47,600 bases of DNA from Eubacteriales bacterium (GTDB lineage: Bacteria > Bacillota > Clostridia > Oscillospirales > CAG-272): contig JAZQHJ010000162.1 of assembly GCA_045540515.1 (NCBI GenBank), forward strand, positions 1 through 47,600, given 5' to 3'. Each line of letters opens with the position of its first letter. The first letter of the stretch is position 1. Below, piece by piece: positions 2,104 to 24,729 of the stretch. The notes below the pieces were generated by a model. That model made no database searches. It worked only from the letters and a program-made list of their open reading frames with translations, and was not told the DNA's origin. Position numbers and translations under genes: made by a program.

Positions 2104-2475
2104 AAGCGTTTTTTGTGGGAAAGAATGGTGAAAATCCGTTGCAAAAGTATGCCTGATGGGAATCAGACCAATTTGGTTTGAAATGGCAAATAGCCCGCCA
2201 TACTGCGTTAAAAAAGCTTGAAAATTCCTTAATTGTCTGCACTTTTTTAGCTTGTCTATCAACCTATTTGCTCATTTGAAACTGTTTTACACCTTCGAAC
2301 GAATAAATCGGTAATGAATTTGTTCGAGCTTTGGTGCAGTAATATAAAGATATTTCAAGGCAAAGGTCGGATAAAGGCATAGTGATTTATCGTTCTAAGG
2401 CAATTTAGCTTGATTTCCATCAGGCATAACCGTTATAGTCGGAATGCCACAGGACGTTTTCGGTGAAAAGCCGAA
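2104..2475 (+). ncRNA. Cobalamin riboswitch, class II (AdoCbl-variant-like), with a large insertion in P5
   Basis: GTGGGAAAG (2115-2123), T-loop hairpin AATGG-TGAAAAT-CCGTT, CCG-TTATAGT-CGG followed by AATGCCAC (about 2430-2450). Closing helix AAGCGTT..TGTGG / CCACAGGACGTTT; P13-like hairpin TTCGGT-GAAAA-GCCGAA (2459-2475). Lies upstream of a DUF4430 gene. Confidence 0.8.
2148..2428. repeat. Long imperfect inverted repeat (MITE-like element or giant RNA hairpin) inside the riboswitch
   Basis: 2148-2175 TATGCCTGATGGGAATCAGACCAATTTG matches the reverse complement of 2401-2428 at 23/28 positions. Patchy pairing continues inward (CTTGAAA 2217 / TTTCAAG 2353; CTGCAC 2237 / GTGCAG 2334). Confidence 0.8.
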
Positions 2476-2532
2476 TGGTAAAATACTCTTGGGCAGGTGC
2501 GAGGATTTCTCTTGCATTGAAGAGAAAAGGAC

Positions 2533-2584
2533 CGAGAATAACGCATTTTTGATGCTTTGTGCGTGTTTATTCTTCGTTTATTTT
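2533..2584 (+). terminator. Probable attenuator terminator of the riboswitch leader
   Basis: CGAGAATAACGCA...TGCGTGTTTATTCTTCG imperfect stem followed by TTTATTTT, just before the RBS of the DUF4430 gene. Confidence 0.55.
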
Positions 2585-2615: not shown

Positions 2616-3041
2616 ATGAAAAGAACCTTAATAGTTACACTAGCAATTTTAATGCTTATGCTTTCTTGCTTTATGGCTTTTTCCTGCAAGAAGGACAACG
2701 GCGATGACGAGAGTGATTTGCTCTATACGGAAAACACAACGCTTGGTACTGGTGATACGACCTTTACTCTTGTTGTTGAGCATTTTCGTGATAAAACAGT
2801 TACATTTACAATAAACACAAGCAAGGAAATTCTTTCCGATGCACTTTTAGAGCTTGGTCTTATCACAGGACACAATTCAACCTATGGGCTATACATTGAT
2901 TCCGTAAATGGTGTTGCACACGATTTTAATACCGACGGAATTTATTGGGCAATCTATGAGGGTGACCAGTACGCATCAACTGGTATTGACGGCATTACAA
3001 TTACTAACGGCGCAACCTATAAGCTTATTGCGTCAAGATAA
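2616..3041 (+). CDS. DUF4430 (transcobalamin C-terminal-like) lipoprotein, probable corrinoid-binding protein
   Basis: Start moved to ATG 2616 (AGGAG RBS). Lipobox-like AFSC; YGLYIDSVNG...YWAIYEG..ASTGIDGI motif typical of DUF4430. Confidence 0.8.
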   Translation: MKRTLIVTLAILMLMLSCFMAFSCKKDNGDDESDLLYTENTTLGTGDTTFTLVVEHFRDKTVTFTINTSKEILSDALLELGLITGHNSTYGLYIDSVNGVAHDFNTDGIYWAIYEGDQYASTGIDGITITNGATYKLIASR

Positions 3042-3076: not shown

Positions 3077-3112
3077 TAAAAGGGACGAGGATAAAGCCTC
3101 GTCCTTTGTTTT
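3077..3112. terminator. Bidirectional intrinsic terminator
   Basis: AAAGGGACGAGG-ATAAAG-CCTCGTCCTTT between convergent genes. Confidence 0.85.
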
Positions 3113-23356: not shown

Positions 23357-23384
23357 TAAAAAACCTAGCACAAGGTGCTAGGTT
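23357..23384 (-). terminator. Terminator after mazF
   Basis: AACCTAGCAC-AAG-GTGCTAGGTT stem with T-run on the minus strand. Confidence 0.8.
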
Positions 23385-23791
23385 AAAATATTATTTGGTT
23401 GAAAATCAGATACGTACTGCGGTGCTTCCTCGTTTTCGTATGTTGTTGTGCCAAGTCCAAAGCTTATTGTTATTGCGTTATTTACCATTCTCATAACGTC
23501 GCTATCAAGATGTCCCATTTTCTCCTTTAAGCGCTTTTTGTCGATTGTGCGAATTTGTTCAAGTAATATTACTGAATCCTTGGCAAGACCGACCTTTTCG
23601 CCGTAAACGTCTATATGCGTTGGCAATTTGGATTTTGTTAGCTTGCTTGTTATGGCTGATACAATAACTGTTGGACTGTATTTGTTTCCTACATCATTTT
23701 GCACAACCAAAACAGGACGAAGCCCACCTTGCTCCGAGCCTACAACTGGGCTCAGGTCAGCATAGTATATATCTCCACGTCGAATGTTCAA
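23378..23791 (-). CDS. mazF: PemK/MazF (EndoA-type) mRNA interferase, no adjacent antitoxin
   Basis: [38 protein letters not shown]...[10 protein letters not shown]. Likely TTG start at 23791 after AGGAG. Confidence 0.93.
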
Positions 23792-23967
23792 TTTTTTCAC
23801 TCCTAGCAACAAAAGATTTGGGCTAAATTGTCTCAGAACAATAAGTCGCTGAGCCTTTATCCGTCTTTTGTTTTGAAAATTTTTAATTTATTGCATAATT
23901 ATTATTGGCTTTATTTTTTCCTTTAATACATTTTATGCAAAATTTTCTTGGGTGTAATTAAATTAAG

Positions 23968-23997: not shown

Positions 23998-24729
23998 TTA
24001 TTCTAGCTCCTTTTTTTCCTTGCGTGATAGCTTGTATGGAATGTAGGTGTCGTCCTTTTCGTGGAAGGTTAGTGTTGAGCCTGCGCTTGTGCTACTGCCG
24101 TTTTTGAAAATTAGGGTTGTTTTTCCGTCAATTTCAACCTGCTCAACATTTTTAAGCATCATATTTACAGAAAGAGAATCCGCGGTAAAATCAACATTTG
24201 TAAGCTCTAATTTAAAGTAAACATAGCTACGCCAATTTGTGGTATCAAGCACGGTTGGCTCATATATTTTGCCATTTGAGTCGCTTATCTCATAATAAAC
24301 TCCGATATCATCAAGAGTGTATTCTATATCTAGCTCGGTGGCATTTTCATTTATTGCCTGAACGACCTCGTTTAGGTGACGTACATTGTATCTTACGGTT
24401 AACTGCATATAGCTATTTTGCTCGTTGTAAACAAAGGAAAATGCATAAATTGCGCCATTTTCGGACATTTCCGTTCCTGCTACGTGAGTGCGTAGGTCAG
24501 TGCTATTTTCGTACACGTCCCTTAGGTTATTTGTGATATAAAGGCTATCGAGCTCCTTATGGTCAGCACCGCAGAAGTTAAGAATTAAAACGATTATTAC
24601 AGCATAAAGCAAAACGCTAATAATTATACTGACAATCTTTGTTGCCTTTTTCGCCCTTGGATTTTCCTGTGGCTCATTGTATGCGTCATTTTCAAGCTCT
24701 GTCTGTATGCTTTCTTGCTCCTTATCCAT
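23998..24729 (-). CDS. Hypothetical single-pass membrane protein
   Basis: RBS GGAGGTG; one TM segment, then a beta-rich extracellular domain. No family recognised. Confidence 0.8.
   Translation of the reverse strand: MDKEQESIQTELENDAYNEPQENPRAKKATKIVSIIISVLLYAVIIVLILNFCGADHKELDSLYITNNLRDVYENSTDLRTHVAGTEMSENGAIYAFSFVYNEQNSYMQLTVRYNVRHLNEVVQAINENATELDIEYTLDDIGVYYEISDSNGKIYEPTVLDTTNWRSYVYFKLELTNVDFTADSLSVNMMLKNVEQVEIDGKTTLIFKNGSSTSAGSTLTFHEKDDTYIPYKLSRKEKKELE

Follow-up and report, generated by a model that had tools for sequence, protein, structure and literature searches.

The question raised by this locus is how, or whether, a riboswitch could work when the two halves of its aptamer core lie almost 300 nt apart. 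In the window (the whole stretch of 47,600 nt analysed here), the 5′ core of an AdoCbl-II (RF01689) aptamer, GTGGGAAAGAATGGTGAAAATCCGTT, is found at 2115-2140 and the 3′ core, ACCGTTATAGTCGGAATGCCAC, at 2429-2450, with a gap of 288 nt, and P3 can be closed by the pairing of TGTGG (2114-2118) with CCACA (2447-2451). The original prediction that two intact core halves, about 280 nt apart, share a common helix is borne out by this arrangement. A degenerate version of the core pattern with a gap of 280-310 nt has a single match in the window and none in 100 shuffles.

The divided aptamer and its intact relatives

The 5′ half of the aptamer (2104-2147, + strand), which was delimited from the sequence, the RF01689 alignment, and a profile match described below, consists of the putative 5′ strand of P1 (2104-2109), the 5′ strand of P3 (2114-2118), J3/4 (GAAAG, 2119-2123), and P4/L4 (2124-2140), and ends with GCAAAAG (2141-2147, + strand), a remnant of the 5′ side of P5. 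The 3′ half (2429-2459, + strand), delimited from the sequence and from a second profile match, consists of P6/L6 (2430-2442), J6/3 (AAUG, 2443-2446), the 3′ strand of P3 (2447-2451), and the putative 3′ strand of P1 (2454-2459). The four-way-junction core (P3, J3/4, P4/L4, P6/L6, and J6/3) is conserved in the window and, in a by-eye comparison, all of the aptamer columns that are invariant in the genus alignment are retained save two in P5/L5. The same P3, J3/4 (GGGAAA), P4/L4, P6/L6, and J6/3 characterise AdoCbl-II, the class II family in which env8HyCbl is the studied member, and so do the same kind of P13 regulatory stem-loop and a B12-related gene downstream; the window differs in that its P5 holds a 281-nt insert and is without L5, and in that its native sequence fails the model.

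That covariance scans could miss this switch had been expected, and this proved to be the case. The Rfam scan of the whole window at gathering thresholds found only a tRNA and no AdoCbl-II match, and a scan of 2050-2640 at the E-value level gave RF01689 17.4 bits (E 0.42), to be compared with a gathering cut-off of 36.5 bits, with a proper alignment for the 5′ half only. An nhmmer profile made from 30 uninterrupted leaders of the genus matched the window as two collinear pieces, at 2111-2146 (E 2.9e-6, 21.7 bits) and at 2418-2573 (E 6.5e-19, 63.0 bits). Excision of the element in silico turned these into one match, which covers profile positions 6-172 and which scores 83-88 bits, versus 70.8-141.7 bits for the members themselves; this post-excision score is that of the nhmmer profile of the 30 genus leaders, used in place of Infernal with RF01689.

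The source genome, that of an uncultured gut member of the Clostridia, in 185 contigs and 80.6% complete, contains no match to RF00174 or to RF01689, so the split switch is the sole recognisable B12 riboswitch of this genome. The splitting of the switch by a mobile element accounts for covariance annotation giving this genome no B12 riboswitch at all.

The upstream neighbour is nrdR (1624-2070, + strand), identified by the Pfam ATP-cone and Zn_ribbon_NrdR domains and by a synteny that is the same in the closest relatives. The regulated gene downstream (2616-3041, + strand), the only DUF4430 gene in this genome, encodes a 141-aa lipoprotein of the DUF4430 family, as judged from Pfam, PDB, and genus synteny: its product scores 23.5 bits with Pfam DUF4430, just below the 23.8-bit cut-off, and matches PDB 3u7z (E 2.7e-5), and a homologue lies downstream of the switch in 30 of the 30 genus loci retrieved. 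The DUF4430 lipoprotein gene expected after the switch is, in this sense, DUF4430-like. Between the aptamer and this gene is the expression platform (2541-2609, + strand), recognised from an inverted repeat and from homologous segments in the closest relatives, which contains a hairpin (ACGCA/TGCGT) with a U-rich tail (2541-2564, + strand) and a second hairpin (2570-2584/2595-2609, + strand) in which the ribosome-binding site (AGGAG near 2603-2607) is sequestered. A simple terminator scan did not call this platform a terminator. An intrinsic terminator at 3080-3107 (+ strand), which is two-way and common to truB, follows the DUF4430 gene.

In the rest of the genus the switch is whole. Exactly one RF01689 match, uninterrupted, was found in each of 41 of the 49 other genomes of the genus (35 of these matches being above the cut-off), and the insert is absent from all 41, where the riboswitch site is empty. 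The orthologous switches in the genus score 37-55 bits. In 14 of the 30 loci the switch is preceded by nrdR, and the closest loci, where protein identity is 62-70%, have the same nrdR-switch-gene order. A pattern search for the core with a gap of 60-400 nt found none among 400 further family genomes, and the JGI metagenome contigs gave no match either for the core pattern with a gap of 280-310 nt or for the 3′ junction.

A second type of switch is also present in the genus (GATAAGGAAA...GAATGCTTATC), with a natural L6 extension of 20-55 nt, and it precedes longer DUF4430 paralogues. Switches of this second type fall below the RF01689 cut-off or are missed at it, as is seen at loci L083 and L085 and in the low-scoring cases (87-95 nt) of genomes G003, G005, G045, and G010.

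The inserted element

The insert extends from 2148 to 2428 (no strand assigned) and measures 281 bp, including a TA at each end (2148-2149 and 2427-2428); it was delimited by its inverted repeat and by its copies elsewhere. The arms of the inverted repeat (2148-2191 and 2385-2428) are 44 nt long and 73% complementary, and the whole insert is an end-to-end hairpin, 2148-2428 alone folding at -94.7 kcal/mol, with z = -4.9 for the fold of 2100-2620. No transposase gene is present, since the only open reading frames touching the element are minus-strand frames of 72 aa and 56 aa, both of which extend beyond it. Rfam, at the E-value level, found nothing credible within the insert of the window or within a consensus-type copy, and in six loci with copies of the element ARAGORN detected neither a tRNA nor a tmRNA. 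No intrinsic terminator was called on the + strand within the element, and a promoter scan found 3 sites as against 3.3 expected from shuffles, which gives no evidence of a promoter inside it.

Copies elsewhere speak for mobility. When 2095-2620 was used as the query against 40 relatives, only the segment from 2151 to about 2430 recurred many times, and it did so in genomes of the same genus (18 matches in G003, 15 in G007, 12 in G015, and 8 in G018). Contig ends account for many of the matches, and for all of the partial ones that were retrieved. Five further full-length copies have about 280 bp in common with the window, with flanks that are unrelated to the riboswitch and that often adjoin terminator hairpins; the ends of the full-length copies are TTAGCCTTACGGGAATCGAACCC ... 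GGGTTCGATTCCCGTAAGGCTAA. Complete copies in other genomes, located at unrelated loci, show 75-82% identity, with 82% for the one nearest to the window's copy. Between loci, the members of one subfamily are 92-99% identical, and the window's copy has about 79% identity to this subfamily. An exact match to the end motif is found in 20 stretches from MAG records whose titles name a Clostridia, Eubacteriales, or Oscillospiraceae bacterium.

The genome of the window itself has one full copy of the element and one 75-nt fragment. This fragment (window 23822-23895, - strand), which is 79% identical to 2335-2409, is directly upstream of a PemK/MazF-type toxin gene (23378-23812, - strand); an open reading frame upstream of this toxin gene, at 23998-24729, has no obvious match to an antitoxin family.

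A filled site and an empty site can be compared at two other loci, where L083 reads ...ATCCT-TA-element-TA-TGTGAA and L084 reads ...ATCCT-TA-TGTGAA, and this comparison reveals a TA target duplication; the element of the window has TA at both of its ends. Its multiple copies at unrelated loci, its inverted-repeat ends, the TA duplication, and its lack of a gene are the grounds on which the insert is assigned to a non-autonomous, MITE-like class of mobile repeat and not to a native long P5.

One of the two options in the original prediction was such a native architecture, a cobalamin riboswitch variant with a long P5 in which the 280-nt arm would be a dedicated RNA domain. The arm does fold well, as the z-score above indicates, and it persists in a second lineage (see below). 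However, many unrelated loci contain the same segment, which is found there beside terminators and in the gaps between other genes; its ends are TA-flanked inverted repeats, and it is missing from the 41 genus switches, with none found by pattern in the 400 other family genomes. A native long P5 is therefore very improbable. What the locus presents is a known switch in damaged form rather than a new design.

Two other loci of the genus bring the repeat and DUF4430 genes together. At L083 (G056:C74), a consensus-type copy of the repeat lies upstream of a second-type DUF4430 gene, with the terminator of the switch on one side of it and the ribosome-binding site of the gene on the other. At L084 (G018:C53), a related repeat (with ends GTAGCCGCAGTATACCCAGTCGAACCCG) lies in the L6 extension of a second-type switch that is without its P3-P4 part and that looks like a decayed switch. 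With the window, this makes at least three occasions in the genus on which the repeat family is found in or beside a DUF4430 leader, and these three landings make the leaders seem to be permissive landing sites.

The ends of the repeat (ATGGGTTCGATTCCCGTAAGGCTAA) closely resemble the T-arm and the 3′ end of the acceptor of this genome's tRNA-Glu (ATGGGTTCGATTCCCGTACGGGTCACCA), in a comparison of the copies at L005-L007 with contig C60:1639-1713 of the same genome. The ends of the element may derive from a tRNA gene.

Among the prokaryotic MITEs that fold as RNA hairpins, the Correia and ERIC elements are co-transcribed, and the MITEs derived from IS630/Tc1-mariner elements duplicate a TA target. 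The present element likewise duplicates TA and has inverted-repeat ends of about 28-44 nt; a DDE_3 (PF13358) transposase was found in none of the five genomes checked, which are fragmented assemblies. A search with the end pattern and a gap of 200-400 nt recovered only MITE copies and no autonomous parent.

The BOX and RUP elements of the pneumococcus, which are also MITEs folding as RNA hairpins, resemble this element in that they are small and gene-less, have inverted-repeat ends, and are multi-copy, intergenic, and often next to terminators. The element described here belongs to a separate family and is inside the aptamer, in the loop needed for signalling. In the accessible portions of the literature on riboswitches and miniature inverted-repeat transposable elements, no MITE within an aptamer is seen, and the nearest case is a pneumococcal BOX element located between two T-box riboswitches, both of which still regulate (PMC3049150). 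The riboswitch family is known, therefore, and the insert is of an ordinary kind; what is distinctive is that the signalling loop has been removed and yet the insertion persists. Considered by itself, the identification of a canonical class-II cobalamin riboswitch (AdoCbl-II, RF01689) interrupted by a MITE-like insert is close to certain.

The loss of L5 and its expected effect on B12 control

The position of the insert is where the 3′ side of P5 and L5 belong. In the relatives, P5 has 10-11 nt, and the P5/L5 region reads GC-AAC-AGCC-AUU-G or AC-AGC-AGUC-ACU-A, with the L5 motif CAG[C/U]CA; among the 30 leaders, the middle pair of P5 is always either A-U (12 leaders) or G-C (18 leaders). In the window, GCAAAAG is followed by the element and then by ACCG, and both the L5 motif and the 3′ strand of P5 are missing. 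The insertion had been placed at the P5 loop from the start, and the comparison confirms this placement, with the 3′ strand of P5 and the L5 motif replaced by the 281-nt element. Excision of the element leaving a single TA would give 13 nt where the native sequence has 16, would lack the GCC of L5, and would not recreate the native P5. Given these missing nucleotides, L5 is gone, which is more than a mere splitting of the hairpin.

The partner of L5 has also had to be reassigned. The original prediction took the hairpin at 2459-2475 (+ strand; UUCGG-UGAAAAG-CCGAA) to be P13-like and proposed that its AAAAG loop could kiss a CTTTT within the insert. In the relatives, the stem of this hairpin is conserved and its loop varies freely (GAAA, GCAA, AAAU, and others), so the AAAAG loop is not conserved; it is a linker hairpin between P1 and P13, an extra feature of this genus compared to AdoCbl-II. 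Comparison with the relatives puts the real P13 at 2486-2524 (+ strand; CTCTT/AAGAG), where the conserved candidate for L13 starts with GGGCA (2491-2495). A P13 stem of 5-8 bp, varying in sequence yet paired, with a loop beginning GG[G/A][C/T]A, was found in 28 of 30 relatives by means of a regular expression, and the two misses were failures of the expression. The GGC of L13 is able to pair with the GCC or GUC of L5, although the covariation is weak: the middle position of L13 is A in four of the 30 leaders and is opposite U in three of these, which is too weak to prove L5-L13 pairing. The L13 of the window holds an additional small hairpin (2496-2519, GCGAG...CUUGC); there is a similar L13 insertion in genomes G021, G013, G055, and G063, and other relatives have a loop of 9 nt.

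The importance of L5 is known from published mutagenesis. PMC5028336 reports that, in the studied member of the family, regulation is lost once the L5-L13 kissing loop is ablated, that the replacement of L5 by a tetraloop gives an inactive switch, and that single-nucleotide deletions in L5 give a non-functional switch with high expression. The kissing loop that caps P5 is common to all cobalamin riboswitches according to PMC7367189, and it is described as required in PMC10653944.

These observations combine into a simple account. In this genus an RF01689 switch controls a small DUF4430 (transcobalamin-like) lipoprotein gene, and in the lineage of the window a 281-bp non-autonomous element has entered the P5/L5 hairpin at a TA. 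Once transcribed, the element folds on itself, such that a P5 of 2-4 bp becomes an extended, imperfect helix of about 140 bp, and the L5 cap is lost. As B12 readout in the RF01689 family depends solely on ligand-stabilised kissing between L5 and L13, the leader would probably be unable to switch; the platform would be held in the ligand-free (ON) fold, and the lipoprotein gene would be expressed without B12 control. In other words, with L5 gone and L5-L13 kissing required, we infer a leader that is blind to B12 and in the ON state. The other option in the original prediction, a switch disabled by an insertion, stands as to the insertion, with its repeat family at unrelated loci and its absence from the 41 genus switches; the disablement itself is what the role of L5 would lead one to expect. 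The comparisons above establish the RF01689 switch, the mobile nature of the insert and where it lies, and the absence of L5, whereas the loss of B12 regulation and the constitutive expression are probable by analogy with the studied switch. Taken whole, from the RF01689 switch and its mobile insert through the loss of L5 to the loss of regulation and constitutive expression, this reading is given a probability of about 0.6.

A second lineage and the fate of the switch

An important question is whether the insertion is a recent accident or one that has been kept. A 1676-nt contig from run X1 runs uninterrupted from 1900 to 2854 of the window, including the insert, and differs from the window by 85 mismatches and 13 gaps; this comparison relies on one contig at a depth of 6.4, with 69 of the differences lying outside those listed. 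Runs X4, X6, and X8 yielded only pieces of other copies of the element or short flanks. Since the X1 contig carries the insert, the insertion is common to two lineages that are about 10% apart and predates their split, and hence is not a fresh lesion. The same contig bears on the idea that a repeat was misjoined into the contig during assembly. The genome is an incomplete one of 185 contigs, and this repeat family breaks assemblies elsewhere, but what flanks the insert on either side is half of a single riboswitch, joined precisely at TA, and the structure is covered in full by the independent X1 contig, which comes from another run. An assembly artefact is barely credible.

The putative 6-bp P1 (2104-2109 with 2454-2459) differs between X1 and the window by two pairs of compensatory changes: 2107 C>T is matched by 2456 G>A, and 2109 T>C by 2454 A>G. 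The chance probability of these is, by a rough estimate, about 0.02-0.08. From the sequences compared, these changes hint at continued selection on the fold of the aptamer. The core changes listed in X1 (2126, 2140, and 2436) are at positions that also vary among the intact relatives. In the coding region, the four indels among those listed sum to +3, with one further indel lying outside the listing, so the DUF4430 gene seems to be maintained.

These observations lend some weight to the possibility that the insertion is tolerated and that the aptamer still binds B12 and regulates, for example through the stability of P1 or through a kissing interaction supplied by the element. In this second version, the element's UGCC (2150-2153), which is complementary to the GGCA of L13, would be substituted for the GCC of L5, and this would need the outer pairs of the long helix to open. 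The occurrence of the insertion in two lineages about 10% apart, the two compensatory P1 pairs, the absence of a change at any invariant core position among the differences listed for X1, and the apparent maintenance of the gene are all consistent with a working switch. However, ablation of L5 kills regulation in the studied member, according to PMC5028336; the UGCC is buried in a perfect to near-perfect terminal helix of 19 bp in the minimum-energy fold; and the core of X1, with 3 changes listed over its 57 nt, has not clearly diverged less than the overall 8.9%, the difference not being significant. A tolerated insertion is possible, then, although considerably less probable than the loss of B12 control. 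The fuller claim, that the split switch senses B12 without the canonical L5 cap, perhaps via UGCC, and that selection has maintained it in two lineages or more, is a shade more doubtful still.

Another possibility is that the insertion silences the gene, either because the long duplex is cut (by RNase III, for example) or because it blocks transcription, in a locus that is decaying. An imperfect duplex of about 140 bp in a leader would be a plausible target for a nuclease, and the related element at L084 is in a riboswitch that has no P3-P4 part. This possibility is unlikely, as the reading frame is open in the window and apparently also in the X1 contig, no intrinsic terminator was called on the + strand within the element, and even the gene at L084 is still open, with 207 aa.

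The preferred reading remains that of an expressed gene that has probably been released from its switch. In this genus, dozens of sister species have an intact switch before the same gene, where the window has a loop-less one, and the contrast amounts to a clean natural test of L5-L13 kissing in class II cobalamin switches. If the loop-less version still answers to B12, the indispensability of the P5 kissing loop would need revision. If it is blind to B12, then a single transposition would have freed a B12-binding surface protein of a gut anaerobe from control by B12.
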